Shown piece by piece: positions 1-37,574 of a stretch of DNA of 64,000 bases (positions are counted from its first letter, which is position 1; every line of letters begins with the position of its first letter). The position numbers and the translations under genes were made by a program. The DNA is from Bacteroidales bacterium (GTDB lineage Bacteria; Bacteroidota; Bacteroidia; Bacteroidales; UBA932). Location: NCBI GenBank assembly GCA_016290385.1, contig JAEETO010000001.1, forward strand, positions 18,956 to 82,955, written 5' to 3'. The notes under the pieces are model-generated. The model saw only the letters and a program-made list of their open reading frames with translations, made no database searches and was not told the DNA's origin.

Positions 1-583
1 CTGTCTGATGGCCAACGTGGAACTGGCCTATGAACTGCGCAATGTCTGCGACTACCTGCTCTTCTCTCCCACAGAGATCCTGACGGACGGGTTCCCCTAT
101 GACATGATGATGCAGGCTATCTTCAACCAGCCTGCCGAATCCGCCATGCGAAGCATCGCCCAGAGCTATATGGCCCACTACCGCGAATACGCCGGCATCT
201 ATTGCTCGGCCACTATCAGCCTGGTCCGCACCTATGGCTTCCAGGCTCTTGCTGAAGCCTGTCAGACCGTGTTCCGTAACCATCAGGAGCAGATTCTGAT
301 GCTCGACCGGAGCAAAGTCCAGCCCTATTTCCGCTACAACAAGCATTGGTATTACGACATTGACGACTTCGTGCAGCAAGTGGCCGATGACAGTGAATAC
401 CAAGCCTTCAACCGGGCTCTCAACCAGGTCGTCATCTATCGCGACGCCACCGACTACTTCCTCGACCTGCAGATATCACACTATTCGGGCCTCAGTATCT
501 ACATCCCCCGGCCCGAATACACCGTCCTCAACAACTATTACAAGACCCTCGCCTGGAACCAGGCCACCGGACTGGTCCAGTAG
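1..583 (+). CDS. Clostripain-like cysteine peptidase (C11-like), C-terminal part; gene starts upstream of the window
   Basis: Frame 2 is open from nt 2 (CLMANVELAYELRN...), so the listed ORF 8..583 is only the in-window tail. The C-L-M-A-N-V-E-x-AYELR block resembles the catalytic-Cys region of clostripain-family peptidases. Stop at 581-583. Confidence 0.55.
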   Translation, partial: CLMANVELAYELRNVCDYLLFSPTEILTDGFPYDMMMQAIFNQPAESAMRSIAQSYMAHYREYAGIYCSATISLVRTYGFQALAEACQTVFRNHQEQILMLDRSKVQPYFRYNKHWYYDIDDFVQQVADDSEYQAFNRALNQVVIYRDATDYFLDLQISHYSGLSIYIPRPEYTVLNNYYKTLAWNQATGLVQ

Positions 584-650
584 TTCCCGCAAACATAAGT
601 ACCGGACGCAGAATCATTCCGGCCGACGCCCGAAGGAGCGTTGGTGTGGA

Positions 651-2280: not shown

Positions 2281-2665
2281 AGTATGTTATTTTCTCAAAG
2301 TAACAACATATACTTATTTCGAATTTAGTTGAAATTTTCTTCACTATAATCTATATTGGGTTAATCTTTTCATCAATTGCTCATTATTTGGATTAGTTCG
2401 GTCTAATTATCAGCGTTTTATATATAGCTCGATTGCTACGCTTTTTTTTTAGTGCAAATGTGATCTGCCCATAATCTCTGTCCCGAGCAAATAAGGCAAT
2501 CGGAATATCACAAGCATTTGATTATCAATGAACAGCTAACGCAATCAAACAGCAAATTCTTGCTATTTTACACATAATATTTGATCTTTGTAGAGGAATC
2601 TAACTATTCATTTAATAACAGTTCACTACTCAACATTTGAGGTTCACTTAGCATCATATAATAAA

Positions 2666-3145
2666 ATGCCTACTTTCATGAAACACACACTCACATTTTT
2701 GTTAGTTGCCGTTCTCTGCCTGAGTGGATGCACAGAAATGGAGGATCTTACCATTGATCCCAATCAGTTTGATATCCAATCTTTGAGCAACCTCTCCTGC
2801 TATTCCATCAAGATCCAGCCCGCCCATACCAATACGATAGGAAAGCGGGGCGGAGACTTTGTGGTAACGGCCTGTATTGATGAAACAATCAATCCCAATA
2901 CGAAGTTACCCAATGTTTTGAAAAACGAGTTCTTTACGGAGAGTCTGAATCTGGATGCATCTTTTGTGGAATTTAAAGGGAGGGAACAAGTCAATGAACA
3001 GACCGTCCGCTATACTTTCCATTTTAAAGAGAACCTTTCGGGACAGGAGCGGGGAATCGGTACACGAGTCATGGATACCACATTCTTGTACAATGGTATT
3101 CATGCAGCAATAGGTGGTTTCTCCATCATCCAACTTGCGGAATGA
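2666..3145 (+). CDS. Hypothetical lipoprotein
   Basis: Lipoprotein-type signal (FLLVAVLCLSGC). ATG at 2666, alternative ATG at 2678 (MKHTL...). AT-rich. No catalytic motif recognised. Confidence 0.55.
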   Translation: MPTFMKHTLTFLLVAVLCLSGCTEMEDLTIDPNQFDIQSLSNLSCYSIKIQPAHTNTIGKRGGDFVVTACIDETINPNTKLPNVLKNEFFTESLNLDASFVEFKGREQVNEQTVRYTFHFKENLSGQERGIGTRVMDTTFLYNGIHAAIGGFSIIQLAE

Positions 3146-3152
3146 TATTTCC

Positions 3153-3267
3153 CGTCTGGAGCCTAATCATCTGATTGATAATTGATAATGCAAAATCACC
3201 CTCCCCTTGCAAGGGGAGGGGTGATTATATGTAAGTACCTGTCTTTCTGACGATTAATCTCCAGCGG
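3153..3267. repeat. REP/MITE-like nested palindromic element, copy A
   Basis: Central hairpin AATCACCCTCCCC (3194-3206) / GGGGAGGGGTGATT (3213-3226). Outer inverted arms CTGGAGCCTAATCAT (from 3156) and GATTAATCTCCAGCGG (3252-3267). Same architecture as copies at 7692-7790 and 8792-8904. Lies between convergent genes. Confidence 0.8.
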
Positions 3268-3273
3268 CTAGTA

Positions 3274-4026
3274 TTACAGATGCGTTCGGATGATGTCGGC
3301 ACCCATGGCGGCGGCGCGGGATTCGTATTCGCGGACGATGTCGCCGCATGTGTCGGGAGTCAGGCCGCGGGGCTGCCAGATGAAACGTTTGCGCGAGACG
3401 CCCACCAGCAGCGGACGCCGGAAGGATTTGAGTTCGTCGAGCCGGTCGAAGAGCGTCTGGTTTTCTTCGTTGCTTTTGGAGAAGCCGAAGCCCGGGTCGA
3501 GCACCCAGTCTGAAACCCCGGCTTCTTTGGCCCGGACGGCAAAGTCCCGGAAATATTGCTTCACGCTGTCGACGATGTCTACGTAGGCATACGGCTGGTG
3601 CATCGTCTCGAAATCGCCCTGATGGTGCATTGCCACGTAGCGCAGGCCGAGACGGCCGGCCACGGGCAGCATTGCCGGGTCCCATTCTCCCGAGGAGATG
3701 TCATTGATCCAGAACCGTCCCATCGCCTGATAGGCCATCACCACGATCGAGGCCCGGAAGGTGTCGATTGAAAACGTGACGCCAGCATAGTGGCGCGCCG
3801 CCTCTTCGACTACAGGTTCCAGCCGTTTCCATTCCGTATCAGCATCCACCAGTTCGGCACCGGGGCGTGAAGACATGGGCCCCAGGTCGAGGATGTCCGC
3901 CCCTGCGTCCAGCAGCGCGTCGGCCCGCCGGCGGAAGGCATCGACCGTGGAAACACGTGAAGGAGCATAGAAGGAGTCCTCGTTGAGGTTGATGATTCCC
4001 ATGATTTTCGTTTGTCCGGTGCTCAT
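3274..4026 (-). CDS. folP: Dihydropteroate synthase
   Basis: GIINLNEDSFYAPSR..., ADILDLGPMSSRPGA and other pterin-binding DHPS blocks. ATG at 4026 (MSTGQTKIMGIINL) preferred over the upstream extension to 4122, because a TATCTTTG box (4055-4062, minus) and the divergent tmk gene lie inside that extension. Confidence 0.85.
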   Translation of the reverse strand: MSTGQTKIMGIINLNEDSFYAPSRVSTVDAFRRRADALLDAGADILDLGPMSSRPGAELVDADTEWKRLEPVVEEAARHYAGVTFSIDTFRASIVVMAYQAMGRFWINDISSGEWDPAMLPVAGRLGLRYVAMHHQGDFETMHQPYAYVDIVDSVKQYFRDFAVRAKEAGVSDWVLDPGFGFSKSNEENQTLFDRLDELKSFRRPLLVGVSRKRFIWQPRGLTPDTCGDIVREYESRAAAMGADIIRTHL

Positions 4027-4054
4027 CTTTTTCGTATCTTTACAAATTGTATTG

Positions 4055-4062
4055 CAAAGATA
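4055..4062 (-). promoter_or_regulatory. Bacteroidota -7 promoter box (TATCTTTG) for folP
   Basis: The plus strand reads CAAAGATA. It lies 28 nt upstream of the folP ATG. Confidence 0.45.
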
Positions 4063-4069
4063 ATACTTT

Positions 4070-4747
4070 ATGCTGATCGTTCTCGAAGGATTGGATGGCG
4101 CCGGCAAATCGACGCAACTCAAGATGGTGACCTCCTATTTCACGTCGCTGGGGCGGAAAGTGGAATACCTCCATTTCCCGCGCTATACGGCGCCGGTCTA
4201 TGGCGAGCTCATCGCCAAGTTCCTGAGGGGCGATTTCGGTGCCATCGACCAGGTGCATCCGCAGCTGGTGGCCCTGCTCTTCGCCGAAGACCGTCGCGAT
4301 GCCGCCACGCAGATCCGTGGGTGGATGGACGAAGGCCGCGTGGTGATCCTCGACCGCTACGTCTATTCCAACATCGCCTTCCAGTGTGCCAAGCTTCCCG
4401 ATGAAAAGGAAGCTGCCGCCCTGCGCGACTGGATCTTCGAACTCGAATACCAGCACAACGACATCCCCCGGCCGACCCTCAACCTGTTCCTCGACGTGCC
4501 CATCTCCTTCGTGGACGCCAAGCTCAAGATCAACCGCAAAGGCGGCGACCGGGCCTATCTGGAAGGCAAGGCCGATATCCACGAAGCCGACATCCGCTTC
4601 CAGATGAAGGTACGCGAGCACTACCTCGGGCAGTGCCGCCGCGACCCGCATTTCATCCGCATCGACTGCAGTGACCCGGACGGCAACATGCTGCCTGCCG
4701 CCGACATCTTCCGCCGCATCCGCAACGAAATCGAAATGCGCTCATGA
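4070..4747 (+). CDS. tmk: Thymidylate (dTMP) kinase
   Basis: N-terminal P-loop MLIVLEGLDGAGKSTQ and overall dTMP-kinase layout. Confidence 0.85.
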   Translation: MLIVLEGLDGAGKSTQLKMVTSYFTSLGRKVEYLHFPRYTAPVYGELIAKFLRGDFGAIDQVHPQLVALLFAEDRRDAATQIRGWMDEGRVVILDRYVYSNIAFQCAKLPDEKEAAALRDWIFELEYQHNDIPRPTLNLFLDVPISFVDAKLKINRKGGDRAYLEGKADIHEADIRFQMKVREHYLGQCRRDPHFIRIDCSDPDGNMLPAADIFRRIRNEIEMRS

Positions 4748-5886
4748 GATTCCTGCTCGCCCTTTTCAGGATCCTTTTCGCCCTGACCTTCATCGTCTCG
4801 GGCGCACTCAAGCTGGTCGATCCGGTCGGAACGGGCCTCATCGTCAAGGAGTACCTCGATTTCATGCATCTGGACGCCCTCGAACCCGCCGCCATCGGAC
4901 TGGGCATCGCACTGGCCGTCACCGAATTCACCATCGGCATCTGCATCCTGGGCGGCCTGCGTATCCGCATCATCTCCTGGATTACGCTCATCATGGTCGC
5001 GGGCTTCACCGGCCTTACGCTCTACCTGATGCTTTTCAATCCCATCAGCGACTGCGGCTGCTTCGGCGAAGCCATCCATCTGACCAATACCCAGACCTTC
5101 CTGAAAAACGTCGTGCTACTGGTGCTGGCCATCCTGATCTTCCTGGGGCGCAAGCGCGCCACCCGCATCGCCCCGGCCTGGCTCGAGTGGACGTTCGTGG
5201 GCATTTTCGCCTTGCTGGCCACGGCCGTGGCGATCCGGGCGCTGGCCACCATCCCGCAAGTCGATTTCACTGCCTACCGAGTGGGAAACAGCCTCGACGA
5301 ACTGGCACAGGAAAACCAGGCACGATACGAGACCACCTTCCTCTATACCAAGGACGGTCATACCGAAGAATTCACGCTCGACAACCTGCCGGACGAGAGC
5401 TGGACCTATCTCGACAGCAAGACCGTGCAGGTGGGCGGATCCACGAAGATGGCGCAGGTCGACTTCACATTGGAACAAATGGAAGGCCCGGTACTGGCCG
5501 TAACGATCTATAATCCCGAAGCCCTTGACGCGGGGCAGTTGGAAAGAATCGAACATTTCAAGCAGGCTGCGGCACTACGGGGCCAGGAAGTGGTGGTTTA
5601 CGGGCCGTCCGGCGATTATGTGACGGCCGACCGCAAATCGCTCATGACACTCAACCGCAGCAACGGCGGCGCCGTATATTTCAACGACGCCACGATCGTG
5701 GCGAAATGGGCCAATCTTGAGTTGCCGGAAGTCGACCTGGCCGCCGTACTCGACGAAGACCCCGATGTGCTGATCCTCCGGCACCGCATCCGGGAACAAC
5801 TCTATGTCAGCATCCTGATTGCCGGTGCGCTGGTGCTGATGGCTTTCATGCGCATCATCTGCAAATCTTTCATTATCGTCAAGTGA
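4744..5886 (+). CDS. MauE/DoxX-type membrane protein with C-terminal soluble domain
   Basis: Four N-terminal TM helices, the CGCFGE motif typical of MauE/DoxX proteins and a C-terminal TM helix. ATGA overlap with the tmk stop. Confidence 0.6.
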   Translation: MRFLLALFRILFALTFIVSGALKLVDPVGTGLIVKEYLDFMHLDALEPAAIGLGIALAVTEFTIGICILGGLRIRIISWITLIMVAGFTGLTLYLMLFNPISDCGCFGEAIHLTNTQTFLKNVVLLVLAILIFLGRKRATRIAPAWLEWTFVGIFALLATAVAIRALATIPQVDFTAYRVGNSLDELAQENQARYETTFLYTKDGHTEEFTLDNLPDESWTYLDSKTVQVGGSTKMAQVDFTLEQMEGPVLAVTIYNPEALDAGQLERIEHFKQAAALRGQEVVVYGPSGDYVTADRKSLMTLNRSNGGAVYFNDATIVAKWANLELPEVDLAAVLDEDPDVLILRHRIREQLYVSILIAGALVLMAFMRIICKSFIIVK

Positions 5887-5887
5887 C

Positions 5888-6901
5888 ATGGACATCGCTG
5901 TCGTCATCCTCAACTGGAACGGTCTGAACATGCTGCAGACCTATCTGCCGACCCTGATCGGACGGACCTCGCTTCCCGGCACTTTCATCGTGGTGGCCGA
6001 CAACGGTTCCACGGACGGCTCCGTTGCCTGGCTGCGGGCGGAGTATCCGGAAATCCGGACGCTGTGCTTCGACAAGAATTACGGCTTCACGGGCGGCTAC
6101 AACCGTGCGCTTCGGGAGATAGATGCTGACTACTACGTGTTGCTCAACTCCGACATCGAGGTCGGCGAAGGCTGGCTCGAACCGCTGGAAAATTTCATGG
6201 AAGAGCATCCCGATGTCGGCATCTGCCAGCCCAAGGTGCTGTCGATAGCCGAGCGTGACCGCTTCGAATACGCAGGGGCGGCGGGCGGCTTCATCGACCG
6301 TTATGGGTATCCGTTCTGCCGCGGGCGCATCCTTTCGAACATCGAGAAAGATACGGGCCAGTACGACGAGCCGGTGGAATGCTTCTGGGCGACTGGCGCA
6401 TGTCTGATGGTACGCAGTGCGATCTATCACCATCTGGGCGGTCTCGACGAATTGTTCTTTGCCCATATGGAGGAGATTGATTTCTGCTGGCGGGCCAAGA
6501 TGCTGGGCTATCAGGTGTGGTGTGTGCCAACCTCGAAGGTCTGGCATGTGGGTGGCGGCACGCTGCCCAACAATTCTCCCCGGAAGCTCTACTTCAACTA
6601 CCGCAACAACCTGCTGATGCTCTACAAGAACCTGCCGGAAAGCATCCGCCGCAGGCGTATTTTTGTCCGCATGTGTCTTGACGGGGCTTCAGCCGCCGTC
6701 TATCTGGTCACGGGCAAATGGTCGTTCTTCAGCGCCGTCTGGAAGGCGCACCGCGACTACCGCCGCCTCCGCCGCGAAGAAGATCCGTCACCTTTCGAGG
6801 AAGAGCGCAACAACATCGGCCTCTATGCCGGCAGCATCATCCTCCGCTTCTTCCTTTCCGGCAAGAAACTCCGCTGGAGCGACATCGAAAGATATTTGTA
6901 A
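5888..6901 (+). CDS. Glycosyltransferase family 2
   Basis: VVILNWNG...VVADNGSTDGS N-terminal GT2 signature and LNSDIE (DxD-like). Starts 2 nt after the preceding stop. Confidence 0.8.
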   Translation: MDIAVVILNWNGLNMLQTYLPTLIGRTSLPGTFIVVADNGSTDGSVAWLRAEYPEIRTLCFDKNYGFTGGYNRALREIDADYYVLLNSDIEVGEGWLEPLENFMEEHPDVGICQPKVLSIAERDRFEYAGAAGGFIDRYGYPFCRGRILSNIEKDTGQYDEPVECFWATGACLMVRSAIYHHLGGLDELFFAHMEEIDFCWRAKMLGYQVWCVPTSKVWHVGGGTLPNNSPRKLYFNYRNNLLMLYKNLPESIRRRRIFVRMCLDGASAAVYLVTGKWSFFSAVWKAHRDYRRLRREEDPSPFEEERNNIGLYAGSIILRFFLSGKKLRWSDIERYL

Positions 6902-7015
6902 CCCAAACTGAAATGTTTCCCGGTCGCGAGCGGCTGGGGATCTTCATTTTCCGTCAGGGGTTGACGCAACATTTGCAGGTGATTGGCATCTATATATGTG
7001 AATACATATCACACT

Positions 7016-7705
7016 ATGCGCCGAATGCTATTATGCCTGCTGGCCTTGTTATGGCTGCCAGTCTCCTGTGAATTCTTGCAAAACGATCCTGTCTTGACGA
7101 TTGACGCTGAAGATGGTTGGATTACTTTTGACGCCGAAGGCGGCGACAGCACCATCCTGATTACTTCCAACTGCGACTGGGAGGCGGAAAGCCTGGGCAG
7201 TTCGACGGGGGAATCTTTCTTTTCTGTGTCTCCCCGTAGCGGCAAGCCGGGTGAAAGCGTTCTTACGGTACACGTACTCCCGCAACAGGTTGTCTGGCCC
7301 CGCGGTGGAAGTCTCGTACTGAAATACCGAAAGACGTACGTCAGCCCGGTCGAGACCAGGGAACTGTATGTCAATGTCTATCAGAAAGGTGCGGCTGAAA
7401 AGATCTGGTTCGGAGACTGGCAGGAGCCGACGCTCCCAGCCGAAGGCGGAAGTTTTACGACCAACCTCTTTTACAACGGCCAGACCTGGTGGGTGACCTG
7501 CGATGACCCGGATGTCAAATTGGATTTTGCGTGGAAACAACATGACAATGATCCAATAAAGACGGTCACCGTCACGGTTTCAGTTGCGGCCAACCCATCC
7601 ACAGAAAAACGCTCCTTCACGCTGAAAGTCAGCGACCGTAGAGAACAGAATTTCTACGGCGATTACGTCTTTCATCAGCAGGCTGGCACCGCCGCTGGGG
7701 TCTAA
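7016..7705 (+). CDS. BACON-domain lipoprotein
   Basis: Signal/lipobox MRRMLLCLLALLWLPVSC. BACON-like segments (AEGGDSTILITSNCDWEAES; AEGGSFTTNLFYNGQTWWV). ATG 7016 preferred over TTG 6983. The last 13 codons lie inside the 39-bp inverted repeat 7667-7705. Confidence 0.65.
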   Translation: MRRMLLCLLALLWLPVSCEFLQNDPVLTIDAEDGWITFDAEGGDSTILITSNCDWEAESLGSSTGESFFSVSPRSGKPGESVLTVHVLPQQVVWPRGGSLVLKYRKTYVSPVETRELYVNVYQKGAAEKIWFGDWQEPTLPAEGGSFTTNLFYNGQTWWVTCDDPDVKLDFAWKQHDNDPIKTVTVTVSVAANPSTEKRSFTLKVSDRREQNFYGDYVFHQQAGTAAGV

Positions 7706-7790
7706 CCGCCTATTCAACAGGTTCTTATGTATAATCACCCTCCCTCTACTGGTGGAGGGTGATTTTGTGTATAGCGCTGTACTCCAGCGG
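7692..7790. repeat. REP/MITE-like nested palindromic element, copy B
   Basis: Central hairpin AATCACCCTCC (7733-7743) / GGAGGGTGATT (7754-7764). Outer arms CGCTGGGG (about 7694) and CTCCAGCGG (7782-7790). Confidence 0.75.
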
Positions 7791-7840
7791 GTTGTTCTCC
7801 AGCCGTAAAATTATATTTGGAAATCGGCCTGTCAGGATAT

Positions 7841-7848
7841 TATCTTTG
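7841..7848 (+). promoter_or_regulatory. -7 promoter box (TATCTTTG) for the RAYT gene
   Basis: 18 nt upstream of ATG 7867. Confidence 0.45.
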
Positions 7849-7866
7849 TATGAAAAATAGTGCGAT

Positions 7867-8781
7867 ATGAGGGGAAAGATTACATTTCGACAAGGTGCGG
7901 TCCAGCACATCTATCAAAAAACCATCAACGGTTTCCTGATTTTCTATTCAACACGAGATTGCCTGGTCTTTTTTACGATCCTTGCGACAGCTACCCGCCG
8001 GTATGGTGTACATATCCTAGGCATTTGCCTGATGGTCGACCATGTACATATCCTGGTCGAAGCCCGGTGCAAGCGGGACATTGACCTGTTTGTCCGTCTC
8101 TACACAAGCTGGTTTGTAAGAATGTACAATGACTGGTATGGAAGGAACGGTCCATTCTTCTATTCGCCTTACGGAATTGCCTCGAAAGTTTCTGACAAGG
8201 ACATCCGGAATGCCATCGCCTATCTCTACAATAATCCGGTGGAGCGATTAATGTGCAAGCGTGCTGAGCAGGCGCATTGGAACTTTTTGGCATATGCTGA
8301 CGGCCAGTATCATTTTTCCCCGCCCATCCGACTCGACAAAGCGCGCGCGCCGATGCGTCGTGCCATCGAAGAAGTCAAGATTTCCCGCAGGGTGGACATG
8401 CCCCTCAATTATGCCCAACTGAAAAGAATGACCAAGCCCTTGCTTCCTGAAGAACAGCAGCAATTAACGGACTTCATCGTCCAAAGCTACAACTGCGTAG
8501 ACTATGCTGACCTCCTGTATCGTTATGGTAGCTACAAAGATCTGGTAATGGCCATCAATACTACGACAGGCAGCGAGTACGTCATCAAGGAGGACTTTGT
8601 GGGAAGATCAGACAGGATTTTTCAAAAGATGTCCGCCTTCCTGCTGGAGTCGCACCGGATTGAATGCATGGACGAACTGCATCGCCTTCCCGAATCGGAA
8701 CGCAGCGCCCTAATCGCCCCGTTGGGCATCCGTACCGGCGCCAGCCGGCGCCAGCTCGAGAAGTATCTCCACCTAAGCTGA
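7867..8781 (+). CDS. REP-associated tyrosine transposase-like protein (Y1 HUH, IS200/RAYT type) with C-terminal extension
   Basis: HUH motif VDHVHILVE and Tyr motif AIAYLYNNPVE in the usual order, plus the N-terminal block HIYQKTINGFLIFYSTRDCLVF. About 150 extra C-terminal residues end in an HTH-like segment. Flanked by REP-like hairpins. Confidence 0.75.
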   Translation: MRGKITFRQGAVQHIYQKTINGFLIFYSTRDCLVFFTILATATRRYGVHILGICLMVDHVHILVEARCKRDIDLFVRLYTSWFVRMYNDWYGRNGPFFYSPYGIASKVSDKDIRNAIAYLYNNPVERLMCKRAEQAHWNFLAYADGQYHFSPPIRLDKARAPMRRAIEEVKISRRVDMPLNYAQLKRMTKPLLPEEQQQLTDFIVQSYNCVDYADLLYRYGSYKDLVMAINTTTGSEYVIKEDFVGRSDRIFQKMSAFLLESHRIECMDELHRLPESERSALIAPLGIRTGASRRQLEKYLHLS

Positions 8782-8791
8782 ATGCCGCTAT

Positions 8792-8904
8792 GTCTGGAGA
8801 TTAATCATCTGAAAATAAGCCAGATATAAGAAATCACCCTCCCCCAGCACGGGGAGGGTGATTTTACATAAGTAGCTGATGATTAGTCGATTAATCCCCA
8901 TCGG
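8792..8904. repeat. REP/MITE-like nested palindromic element, copy C
   Basis: Central hairpin AATCACCCTCCCC (8832-8844) / GGGGAGGGTGATT (8851-8863). Outer arms CTGGAGATTAATCATCTGA (8794-8812) and GATTAATCCCCATCGG (8889-8904). Collinear with copy A. Confidence 0.8.
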
Positions 8905-8948
8905 TGGCGCCAGCCTGCTGATGAAAGACATGCTGGCCGAAACTTTTG

Positions 8949-9500
8949 CTACTTGAAATAGCGGTTGTACAAGCCTTCGAAGCCTTTGCCGTGACGGGCT
9001 TCGTCCTTGGCCATCTCATGGACCGAGTCGTGGATGGCGTCGTAGCCGAGCTGTTTGGCACGGGTAGCGATGGCTTTCTTGCCTTCGCAGGCACCGGCCT
9101 CGGCTTCCATGCGTTTCTTTAGGTTGGTCTTGGTGTCCCATACCACTTCGCCCAGCATCTCAGCGATACGGGCGGCATGGTCGGCCTCCTCGAAGGCATA
9201 GCGACGGAATGCCTCGGCAACTTCGGGATAACCCTCGCGGTCGGCCTGACGGCTCATGGCCAGATACATGCCCACTTCTGAGCATTCTCCGTTAAAGTGA
9301 TCCTTCAAGCCCTGCCACACTTCGGGGTCGCAGCCTTTGGCCACGCCGATCACGTGCTCGTCGACAAAGGTCAGGCCGCCTTCGCTCTCGACCACTTCAT
9401 TGAATTTCTCCCTGGGGGCTTTGCAAATCGGGCATTTCTCGGGGGCCTCGGGGCCTTCGTGCACATAACCGCACACGGTGCAGATCCATTTCTTTTTCAT
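8949..9500 (-). CDS. Reverse rubrerythrin (N-terminal rubredoxin-like domain + C-terminal ferritin-like di-iron domain)
   Basis: CTVCGY...CPICKAP rubredoxin knuckles at the N-terminus. ExxH di-iron motifs (EEADH, DEARH) in the C-terminal helical bundle. Confidence 0.8.
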
Positions 9501-9589
9501 GATATTGTCGTTTTGAATATTTATAATTTAGAATTATTATAATCTGTTACAAATTTATTCAATTAATTGGTATCCACCAAAAAAAAACA

Positions 9590-9597
9590 TATCTTTG
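9590..9597 (+). promoter_or_regulatory. -7 promoter box (TATCTTTG) for rplY
   Basis: About 85 nt upstream of ATG 9682. The intervening leader contains two hairpins. Confidence 0.45.
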
Positions 9598-9681
9598 CGG
9601 TCCGCTTAAAAAGGGAAACCTTTTGGTGCAATGGGAGCCGGACCCGATCCGGCTTGAGTAACACATTTTAAAACAAAGACA

Positions 9682-20231: not shown

Positions 20232-20258
20232 GAGATTCCGGGTCATGCCCGAAATGAC
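20232..20258. repeat. GC hairpin repeat (family 3), inverted and diverged copy
   Basis: GAGATTCCGGGTCATGCCCGAAATGAC is the reverse complement of a variant of GTCATTCCGGGCTTGACCCGGAATCT. Lies just 3' of holA. Confidence 0.6.
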
Positions 20259-20264
20259 CCAGAT

Positions 20265-21337: not shown

Positions 21338-21349
21338 CATAAAAACTGC

Positions 21350-21375
21350 GTCATTCCGGGCTTGACCCGGAATCT
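21350..21375. repeat. GC hairpin repeat (family 3)
   Basis: GTCATTCCGGGCTTGACCCGGAATCT (stem ATTCCGGG/CCCGGAAT). Lies between the divergent holA and cca promoters. Confidence 0.7.
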
Positions 21376-37275: not shown

Positions 37276-37303
37276 CCGTCATTCCGGGCTTGACCCGGAA
37301 TCT
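37276..37303. repeat. GC hairpin repeat (family 3), also a likely terminator after plsX
   Basis: CCCGTCATTCCGGGCTTGACCCGGAATCT, identical to the copy at 37547-37574. Confidence 0.75.
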
Positions 37304-37546: not shown

Positions 37547-37574
37547 CCGTCATTCCGGGCTTGACCCGGAATCT
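37547..37574. repeat. GC hairpin repeat (family 3) between the convergent ACP and LolA-like genes
   Basis: CCCGTCATTCCGGGCTTGACCCGGAATCT. It overlaps the TAG of the LolA-like gene (37573-37575). Confidence 0.75.

Follow-up and report, generated by a model that had tools for sequence, protein, structure and literature searches.

A RAYT-like Y1 HUH gene between inverted nested palindromes in a structurally variable Bacteroidales locus

The host role of RAYT-type enzymes is unresolved, and nearly all data on them are Proteobacterial. The window analyzed here, a stretch of 64,000 nucleotides from a gut or rumen Bacteroidales chromosome, contains a Y1 HUH gene enclosed by two nested palindrome elements (NPEs), which are inverted relative to each other, and by an outer inverted repeat. 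An earlier note on this DNA had proposed a RAYT/REP system in a Bacteroidota genome with an atypical IS-like outer repeat; the host assignment was borne out. The locus raises the question of whether the gene and the palindromes belong together, and whether they form a mobile element or a fixed chromosomal system. The relevant features are as follows.

3153..3269, no strand: NPE3, a solo nested palindrome 4.6 kb upstream of the cassette (profile, fold)
6983..7705, + strand: BACON-domain gene ('geneA'; Pfam BACON, 27.3 bits), its 3' end embedded in the left repeat arm
7667..7705, + strand: left arm of the 39-bp outer repeat, formed by the final 13 codons of the BACON-domain gene (VFHQQAGTAAGV*)
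7690..7808, no strand: NPE-L, the left nested palindrome (nhmmer profile, repeats, fold, covariation)
7816..7848, + strand: Bacteroidetes-type promoter motif TTTG-N21-TATCTTTG, read from the sequence and ending 18 nt upstream of the Y1 ATG
7867..8781, + strand: Y1 HUH (RAYT-like) gene, 304 aa (Pfam Y1_Tnp, AF2 model, Foldseek, invariant residues, dN/dS)
8791..8906, no strand: NPE-R, the right nested palindrome (repeats, profile, fold), with its central hairpin at 8832-8865
8891..8929, − strand: right arm of the 39-bp outer repeat, a non-coding inverted duplicate of the BACON gene 3' end that abuts the rubrerythrin stop codon
8949..9500, − strand: rubrerythrin gene, convergent with the Y1 gene and its syntenic right-hand neighbor in related lineages

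The translation of ORF 7867-8781 carries the HUH and tyrosine motifs that the earlier note had read in it, VDHVHILVE at residues 57–65 and AIAYLYNNPVE at residues 116–126. The profile search suggested there matched residues 37–122 to Pfam PF01797 (Y1_Tnp) at 33.6 bits, above the gathering score of 23. The AF2 model of the protein (pLDDT 91.7) has the topology b-a-b-b-a-b-a, and its top Foldseek match is 4er8_A, TnpA_REP with a REP hairpin (TM 0.68 on the target, RMSD of 2.5 Å), followed by the ISDra2, IS608 and IS200 TnpA structures (2xma, 2a6m and 2f4f). Residues H59, H61, Y119, N122 and N123 are invariant among 44 homologs, and the HUH motif, the single catalytic tyrosine, the polar ligand four residues on and the canonical beta-alpha fold place the protein in the Y1_Tnp superfamily. 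With a dN/dS of 0.08 in each half of the protein, the gene is under strong purifying selection, and its catalytic residues and fold are intact. By sequence comparison, the RAYT equivalog REP_Tyr_transpos of NCBIfam scores 33.3 bits, below its cut-off of 80, and a PDB sequence search gave matches confined to IS200/IS605 proteins and did not reach 4er8.

The catalytic domain occupies approximately residues 1–130 and is followed by a helical C-terminal domain (approximately residues 133–304, ~170 aa) that is conserved, family-specific and always fused to this Y1 core. The long C-terminal extension remarked on earlier is therefore real, and the purifying selection extends to it. We flag it as a domain without a known relative: it has no match in Pfam, PDB sequences, PDB folds or BFVD folds, and the C-terminal halves of 23 family members gave zero Pfam matches and none of the HTH domains Bac_DnaA_C, HTH_23 and HTH_28; these searches thus gave no match for the HTH-like end proposed in the earlier note. 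The subfamily is Bacteroidales-specific, measures ~305 aa, comprises 470 clusters at 50% identity and is abundant in uncultured gut and rumen Bacteroidales. The exact sequence of the window's protein had no entry in the contig collection. The motif at 7816-7848 follows the promoter consensus of Bacteroidetes, familiar from Bacteroides, and is kept in 11 of 13 homologous loci; the Y1 gene has a conserved promoter motif of its own.

Profile, repeat and folding analyses all recovered the flanking palindromes on both sides of the gene, with element boundaries set by an nhmmer profile made from related copies. Each NPE is a two-tier palindrome of ~115 nt. In NPE-L, an outer stem (CCGCTGGGG/CTCCAGCGG-like) surrounds a central hairpin at 7733-7766; the hairpin core AATCACCCTCC..GGAGGGTGATT recurs at 8832-8865 and, for a third time, at 3194. 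This third element, NPE3, lies between the convergent ORFs 2666-3145 (+) and 3274-4122 (−, a pterin-binding enzyme). A profile scan of the whole 64 kb found no NPE beyond these three, all of which lie within 6 kb. Folded as single-stranded DNA, they reach z-scores of −4.4 to −7.2 relative to shuffled sequences. The central hairpins fit the intrinsic-terminator pattern on both strands, all three are located at gene ends or between convergent genes, and that of NPE-R was also picked up by a terminator-like scan. An Rfam search of 2500-9600 at a permissive threshold returned no match. The sequences at the hairpin feet are ..GTAT/AATCACCC, ..AAGA/AATCACCC and ..GCAA/AATCACCC, and no GTAG, the GT[AG]G tetranucleotide expected at the 5' foot of RAYT hairpins, is conserved across an alignment of 27 copies.

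The earlier note had allowed that hairpins confined to these three sites, and found in no related genome, would simply be related terminators. Instead, palindromes flank Y1 homologs in nine homologous loci (L001, L023, L030, L033, L034, L047, L070, L072 and L073). The hairpin sequence is lineage-specific among them (for example, AATAGCCC in L001 and AATCGGTTGCG in L073), and the palindromes co-vary with the protein lineage across genomes; paired inverted copies are nearly constant down to 48% protein identity, despite completely different hairpin sequences. Across the 27-copy alignment, pairing holds in 92% of cells, and compensatory changes occur at 16 of the 21 pairs; none of 500 shuffles attained this, and slid controls remained at 38–53%. 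Because the outer stem, 50 nt away, co-varies as well, we rejected the view that the hairpins are chance structures or generic terminators. Decayed flanking hairpins beside an intact Y1 gene are found in at least one lineage, L005.

Solo copies occur in five loci, 1.4–10 kb from the Y1 gene, and local counts are small: three NPEs in the 64-kb window, four in 21 kb in L072 and three in 21 kb in L073. An exact-hairpin scan of 185,579 species genomes, a set that excludes the source genome, returned 23 stretches, 4 of them from this system, and a metagenome scan returned 35, only 4 of them from this system, each representative genome or metagenome sample having only one or two exact hairpins. On these counts, a high-copy REP family finds no support. 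Contigs that end in hairpins were dismissed as proof of high copy number, since palindromes alone can break de Bruijn assemblies; in practice, the palindromes interrupt the assembly of short reads and flag synteny breakpoints in Bacteroidales metagenome-assembled genomes. Classical REP/REPIN families are far more numerous than the NPEs counted here, and the amplification that is the hallmark of RAYT activity therefore appears weak. The earlier reading as a RAYT/REP system therefore stands in part: the RAYT-like Y1 HUH fold and the cognate inverted hairpins support it, but the protein falls below the NCBIfam RAYT cut-off and the window and scans gave no sign of a high-copy REP family.

The outer repeat has a different origin from the one proposed. 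Of the 39 positions of 7667-7705, 34 agree with 8891-8929 read as its reverse complement, as the earlier note had counted by hand, and the outer 21 are identical. An 18-mer of the repeat occurs at its two arms only (chance expectation, 0.07). What that note had overlooked is that the inverted repeat runs on from the 39-bp part into the hairpins, with arms of 151 nt at 7657-7807 and 8789-8939 that are 75% complementary. The left arm of the 39-bp part is composite: its outer ~24 nt belong to the native coding sequence of the BACON-domain gene, whereas its inner ~15 nt form part of the outer stem of the NPE, from which the gene takes its stop codon. A paralog of this gene in L046 ends YTFHQAGSK* without a palindrome element, and the 39-bp repeat is absent from the homologous cassettes of other lineages. 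We rejected the repeat as a mobile-element end on these two grounds, the paralog sharing the FHQ(Q)AG motif palindrome-free and other lineages lacking the repeat; it is the BACON gene's own 3' coding sequence, duplicated in inverted orientation. Both arms read ..VFHQQAG..stop, so the BACON ORF survives inversion. On the right, ORF 8891-9094 (−) overlaps rubrerythrin and is no gene.

Related strains show that the locus has three structural alleles, in which the gene is present, inverted, or missing beside a single remaining palindrome. In the sister lineage L047, 7657-8929 is inverted between the same flanking genes. The metagenome contig L044 is 99.5–99.8% identical to the window outside the NPE halves, yet lacks 7699-8831; it keeps one palindrome and both outer repeat arms and offers no clean target. 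The 34-nt left half of its palindrome is identical to the reverse complement of the right half of NPE3 and ~90% identical to the orthologous L047 half. Because this half matches neither NPE-L nor NPE-R, simple recombination between the two was rejected, and because the palindrome is a mosaic with an NPE3-like left half, L044 is no simple one-step excision product. Its junctions share only ~8–13 nt of identity, which we infer to be short for RecA-dependent recombination. A third, independent break in synteny lies at 3193 in L046, at the foot of the NPE3 hairpin. Both this break and one of the cassette junctions map to the central hairpin, at its 5' foot or in its 5' arm, that junction being confined to ~12 nt at the foot; the other cassette junction falls in the outer stem. 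Within the shared arm of the hairpin, the exact junction positions are ambiguous. The two orientations are seen only in lineages ~10–14% diverged, not within one population.

We consider it probable that the locus encodes a single-copy, chromosomally fixed Y1 HUH single-stranded DNA endonuclease of RAYT/TIRYT type in a REPtron/TIRtron-like cassette with its cognate NPEs. By analogy with characterized relatives, the enzyme most likely acts on single-stranded DNA, where it would cut its cognate hairpins and join them again. It would bind the central hairpin extruded there, for example on the lagging-strand template. Cleavage and rejoining, placed at the 5' foot or close to it, would pass through a 5'-phosphotyrosine intermediate in the manner of IS608 TnpA and E. 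coli TnpA_REP. Such activity could occasionally copy or move NPEs over short distances and drive inversion and loss of the cassette; the inversion could also be ordinary homologous recombination between the ~150-nt inverted repeats. The central hairpins, each an A-run, GC stem and T-run, may double as bidirectional terminators. The outer 39-bp repeat would represent an outward growth of the inverted repeat, specific to this lineage, in which the BACON tail was copied to the other arm, possibly by template switching between arms or by read-through copying.

The palindromes might instead be structural or regulatory elements of the host, such as bidirectional intrinsic terminators or mRNA-stabilizing hairpins, that recombine by RecA or replication slippage, beside a domesticated Y1 protein that has some other single-stranded DNA function and does not act on them. 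The two-strand terminator pattern, the placement of three hairpins at gene ends or between convergent genes, the low copy number and the persistence of the L005 gene beside decayed hairpins all fit this account, and inverted repeats of ~150 nt suffice for RecA-mediated inversion. It leaves unexplained why an outer stem ~50 nt away from the terminator hairpin is conserved and covaries, why paired inverted copies accompany the gene down to 48% protein identity with different hairpins, and why solo copies cluster close to the gene. The short identity at the L044 junctions also weighs against it, and we regard it as rather unlikely. An autonomous IS-like transposon spanning 7657-8939, with ~150-bp terminal inverted repeats and mobile as a unit (or a mobile TIRtron), would account for the long inverted repeat with its sharp outer edge, for presence/absence polymorphism within a species and for the different chromosomal contexts of the cassette in different genera. 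That outer edge, however, is native BACON coding sequence missing in other lineages, and the 'empty' allele retains the palindrome and both arms. Each Y1 protein variant has one chromosomal context. Synteny with rubrerythrin/L25 is conserved down to 75% identity, with one copy per genome context and the dN/dS given above, no Y1 relatives were found on plasmids or in viral contigs, and the segment has no target-site duplications. An IS-like unit is accordingly very unlikely.

Invertible regions are common in Bacteroidales, and a programmed switch (inverton), flipped often within populations, is suggested by the occurrence of both orientations between the same flanking genes and by the duplicated tail, which keeps the BACON gene intact both ways. 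Yet the orientations are known only from diverged lineages, there is no serine or tyrosine recombinase gene near the cassette, and a flip would have no obvious consequence for expression because the Y1 gene carries its own promoter, making a switch highly improbable. A bolder form of the HUH reading, which we hold to be unlikely, is a self-contained, RecA-independent rearrangement module in which cutting and rejoining at the hairpin foot would flip, excise and re-seed the cassette, the BACON-tail copy would keep that gene intact either way, and the C-terminal domain would add a function that classical RAYTs lack, such as synapsis of distant hairpins or replisome targeting. If this were true, these proteins of gut and rumen Bacteroidales would make up a new functional class among domesticated Y1 enzymes. 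Under the probable reading, as a fixed endonuclease with cognate NPEs, the system is compact: a single gene is joined by two to four large putative substrates that are easy to recognize, and because the junctions of three alleles map to the hairpin foot or outer stem, hypotheses on cleavage site and mechanism can be tested with oligonucleotides.

Among known systems, IS200/IS605 elements (IS608 and ISDra2 TnpA) share the fold, the HUH and tyrosine catalytic residues and subterminal hairpins as presumed substrates. Unlike them, the Y1 cassette is neither multicopy nor on mobile replicons: there is one Y1 copy in the window, in a conserved syntenic location, with no tnpB-like ORF adjoining it. 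The window has no tRNA gene and hence no tRNA-linked island. The tyrosine motif is Y-x3-N-P here and Y-x3-Q there, and the same hairpin stands inverted at both ends here, in contrast to distinct left and right ends there.

The likeness to the E. coli TnpA_REP (RayT/YafM) REPtron and to Pseudomonas RAYT/REPIN systems is closer. They share the Y1 HUH fold, with 4er8_A as the best structural match, and the NP of the tyrosine motif (YLYNNP here, Y[IV]HxNP there), as well as a single-copy chromosomal gene between cognate inverted palindromes, palindrome–protein co-divergence, purifying selection and absence from plasmids and phages. The present system differs in lacking a GTAG foot, in scoring 33 bits against the 80-bit cut-off, in its ~115-nt two-tier hairpins rather than 20–40-nt REPs or REP doublets, in the small number of copies seen, which cluster around the gene where REPs are dispersed in tens to hundreds, in a phenylalanine in place of the conserved W of the W[EQ] motif and in its extra 170-aa C-terminal domain.

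RAYT-like genes flanked by long, partly self-complementary terminal inverted repeats (TIRs) were named TIRtrons/TIRYTs by Di Nocera et al. 2013 (PMC3733652); some of their repeats are self-complementary, and their genomic repeat families are small or absent. By that definition, a RAYT-like gene between 151-nt arms of 75% complementarity that are not GTAG REPs belongs with them, although the TIR motif GGGGWSAS is not exactly matched here (GGGGAGGG). Most TIRYTs fall in subclass 2.1, with a C-terminal Bac_DnaA_C, HTH_23 or HTH_28 domain (PMC6006769). No such C-terminal domain is detectable here. The TIRYTs listed in 2013 by Di Nocera and colleagues are reportedly not Bacteroidales proteins. A Bacteroidetes TnpAY1 subclass has been described as flanked by 'atypical secondary structures' (PMC6006769). 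Subclass 2.6 (Quentin et al. 2018, PMC6006769), whose median length is 179 aa and whose signatures are NH[LIV]H / WQ / YIH[QN]NP, is set apart, by these descriptions of lengths and signatures, from the ~305 aa and DHVH / F / YLYNNP found here. The earlier suggestion that the combination may be undescribed is overstated: TIR-flanked RAYT-like genes have had a name since 2013 (PMC3733652), and the arrangement is a REPtron/TIRtron-type cassette of a known kind, but the ~305-aa Bacteroidales subfamily and its large C-terminal domain are previously undescribed and uncharacterized.

The reading with the most support is that this locus is a REPtron/TIRtron-type cassette whose Y1 enzyme is RAYT/TIRYT-like and domesticated.

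Components of the locus in the window
6983-7705, + strand: BACON gene, left neighbour of the Y1 gene
7867-8781, + strand: Y1 gene
8949-9500, - strand: rubrerythrin gene, right neighbour
7690-7808 and 8791-8906: nested (two-tier) palindromes NPE-L and NPE-R
3153-3269: solo nested palindrome NPE3
7667-7705 and 8891-8929: arms of the 39-bp outer inverted repeat

The 304-aa Y1 protein carries the HUH motif VDHVHILVE and the tyrosine motif AIAYLYNNPVE. It exceeds the Pfam Y1_Tnp threshold (33.6 bits versus 23) and falls below the NCBIfam equivalog cut-offs for RAYT (33.3 versus 80) and IS200 (18 versus 55). A PDB sequence-profile search reached IS200/IS605 transposases alone, with weak scores. The top PDB fold match of its alignment-based AlphaFold model (pLDDT of 91.7, pTM of 0.91) is E. 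coli TnpA_REP in complex with a REP hairpin (4er8_A; TM of 0.68 on the target, RMSD of 2.5 Å over 134 columns), followed by the TnpA proteins of ISDra2, IS608 and IS200. The Y1_Tnp profile and the best fold thus uphold the earlier note's assignment to RAYT-type HUH transposases, with the NCBIfam RAYT cut-off missed. A homolog search recovered proteins of ~305 aa, aligning over the full length, in more than 120 clusters; all named homologs come from Bacteroidales MAGs, annotated 'transposase', 'Transposase IS200 like' or 'RayT'. Residues H59, H61, Y119, N122 and N123 are invariant in 44 of 44 family members, and the dN/dS of the gene is 0.08 against two close homologs (<0.12 for each half).

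Residues ~133-304 are modeled as an all-helical domain with no matches in Pfam, PDB sequences, PDB folds or BFVD folds and no description that we found in the literature; the 'HTH-like' end proposed earlier likewise drew no supporting match in Pfam, PDB or BFVD. A profile of this domain, searched against 1.84 billion representatives, matched 470 proteins (406 at E ≤ 1e-10). Because the best 150 of these 470 are either full-length (~300-aa) proteins with the domain at about residues 133-305 or shorter proteins that look fragmentary, the domain appears, by sequence comparison, to be exclusive to the ~305-aa Y1 family.

There are three copies of the hairpin core AATCACCCTCC..GGAGGGTGATT, at 7733-7766, at 8832-8865 and at 3194. 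Searched with a profile of 16 related copies, the 64-kb window yields three elements and no more, 3153-3269, 7690-7808 and 8791-8906, each of which folds better as single-stranded DNA than 200 of 200 shuffles (z-scores of -4.4 to -7.2). Profile and folding therefore agree on the nested palindromes noted on both sides of the gene and add the solo copy. Common to every copy are an outer stem of ~9 bp, (C)CGCTGGAG / CTCCAGCG(G), a TAA/TTA pair, variable spacers, often with CTGAnnATCAG, and an 11-14-bp central hairpin between A-rich and T-rich runs. Such palindromes also flank Y1 homologs on related contigs (L001, L023, L030, L033, L034, L047, L070, L072 and L073). In a 27-copy alignment, 92.1% of cells are paired and compensatory changes are seen at 16 of 21 pairs, values reached by none of 500 shuffles; sliding the partner by 1-3 columns gives 38-53% pairing. 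Rfam returned no family matches for the palindromes. The central hairpin sequence follows protein divergence across homologous loci.

Central hairpins by identity to the window protein
At least 64%: AATCACCC, AATAGCCC, AATCGCCC, AACTCGCC
69% (L070), deviating: AATCTCGCCCCC
51%: AAGTTACCC
48%: AATCGGTTGCG, outer stem GTGGCGC/GCGCCAC

Two related contigs show other arrangements. In the clade of L005, the Y1 gene is bordered by a restriction-modification gene of the MmeI/Eco57I type and by an MMPL gene; at L005 2600-4100 it is intact between decayed hairpins (AATAGCCCACCC..GGGGGCTAAT downstream, only AATAGC..GCTATT upstream). At L023 5182-7176, a distant BACON homolog lies between the divergently oriented Y1 gene and the second palindrome, and the palindrome pair therefore encloses two genes.

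The outer repeat described in the earlier note is real, although it is not the IS-like end proposed there. Its arms match at 34 of 39 positions, with the outer 21 identical, and an 18-mer from it occurs only twice, once per arm (0.07 expected); the inverted repeat is continuous over 151 nt at 75% (7657-7807 and 8789-8939). The left arm encodes the final residues of the BACON-domain protein. A BACON paralog in metagenome contig L046 ends YTFHQAGSK* before an ordinary terminator, without a palindrome, and the distant homolog in L023 ends RQAAGA*, its stop codon within a palindrome as in the window; from these sequences, we take the outer ~24 nt (VFHQQAGT) to be native coding sequence. The remaining ~15 nt, on the inner side, are the palindrome outer stem, whose TAA is the BACON stop codon. 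In the right arm, the gene tail is duplicated in inverted orientation and is non-coding. The window, L044 and L047 have the repeat; L001, L033 and L034 lack it. Its BACON-tail origin and this absence rule it out as an IS end; it is a lineage-specific inverted-repeat extension, not a family feature. It may have arisen by template switching between repeat arms, a known mechanism of quasipalindrome correction, or by read-through copying on the part of the HUH enzyme. A by-product of the duplication is that the BACON ORF is intact in either cassette orientation.

Present, inverted and absent alleles occur naturally, and this set is the most useful asset of the locus. In L044, the gene-absent allele, both flanks are collinear with the window, at 99.5% identity for 2,349 nt to the left and 99.8% for ~870 nt to the right; 7699-8831 is missing, and one palindrome remains between both 39-bp arms. 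This palindrome shares its hairpin and right half with NPE-R. Its left half, 34 nt long, matches the reverse complement of the NPE3 right half exactly and the gene-side half in L047 at ~90% identity. In L047, the gene-inverted allele (DNA 86-92% identical, Y1 protein 93%), the 7657-8929 segment is reversed between the same flanking genes, and the inner palindrome halves move with the gene. Synteny between L046 and the window extends rightward from NPE3, and the genes to the left differ; homology (91%) begins exactly at the NPE3 5' hairpin foot (window 3193, L046 12635), which looks like a rearrangement breakpoint at a palindrome. Window 1-609 appears inverted ~2.7 kb away in L046.

Three rival explanations are less likely. 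The palindromes could be terminators, recombined by host pathways: the central hairpins do match the intrinsic-terminator pattern. The L044 junctions share just 8-13 nt of identity; junction 8831/8832 and the L046 break lie at the 5' foot or 5' arm of the central hairpin, and junction 7698/7699 lies inside the outer stem. The cassette could be a programmed inverton: both orientations occur between the same flanking genes, in the diverged lineages of the window and L047. The cassette could also be an autonomous IS-like unit. More distant Y1 clades do lie at other sites (two, for example, upstream of an MMPL gene); each protein variant has one chromosomal context, amid housekeeping genes, with the right-hand synteny (rubrerythrin, L25, Pth, S4-domain protein, Hc1 and S41 peptidase) held down to 75% identity, and no relatives were found in IMG/VR or PLSDB. 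In 11 of 13 loci, the start codon is preceded, at a distance of 17-28 nt, by a promoter motif of the Bacteroidetes type, TTTG-N17-23-TAnnTTTG.

Under the domesticated-enzyme reading, the two-tier palindromes are probably the cognate substrates. By analogy with IS608 TnpA and TnpA_REP, the enzyme would recognize them as hairpins in single-stranded DNA and would cut and rejoin near the 5' foot, which could result in infrequent local copying, inversion and cassette loss.

Palindrome copy number is low. Solo copies lie 1.4-10 kb from the Y1 gene in the window, L030, L034, L072 and L073. An exact-hairpin scan of 185,579 species (one genome each) gave 23 stretches, four of them from this system and all four beside, or at most 4 kb from, a Y1 homolog; the others are hairpins standing alone in unrelated taxa. 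Of 35 stretches from the metagenome scan, four were relevant. Because palindromes break short-read assemblies, MAG-based counts are likely underestimates. Short contigs with close Y1 homologs (L032, L033, L003 and L004) terminate within flanking hairpins. A 2.7-kb contig in a 'Selenomonadaceae' MAG (L017, JAEEGN010000146.1) has flanks and alignment statistics in the Y1/palindrome region identical to those of L023 (CACYZM010000001.1, Bacteroidia MAG) and is probably mis-binned.

Another repeat in the window, CGTCATTCCGGGCTTGACCCGGAATC, is also short and palindromic and is unrelated to the NPEs. It is a hairpin, ATTCCGGG/CCCGGAAT, that carries a CGTC tag on its 5' side and is present in three exact copies (0.00 expected by chance).

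Copies of the second repeat
21349-21374, 37277-37302 and 37548-37573, + strand: window copies
20234-20259, - strand: window copy, 3 mismatches
5370-5395: copy in contig L060

It resembles the 'CGTC-tagged REP' class, for which a dedicated transposase is not known (PMC3733652).

The general arrangement of the Y1 cassette is already covered by REPtrons/RAYTs and TIRtrons/TIRYTs (PMC3733652) and by eleven TnpAY1 subclasses, among them a Bacteroidetes one with flanking 'atypical secondary structures' (PMC6006769). No published subclass signature (PMC6006769) fits the family by length or by HUH, W and Y motifs; its own signature is a length of ~305 aa, DHVH, F replacing W, and YLYNNP.
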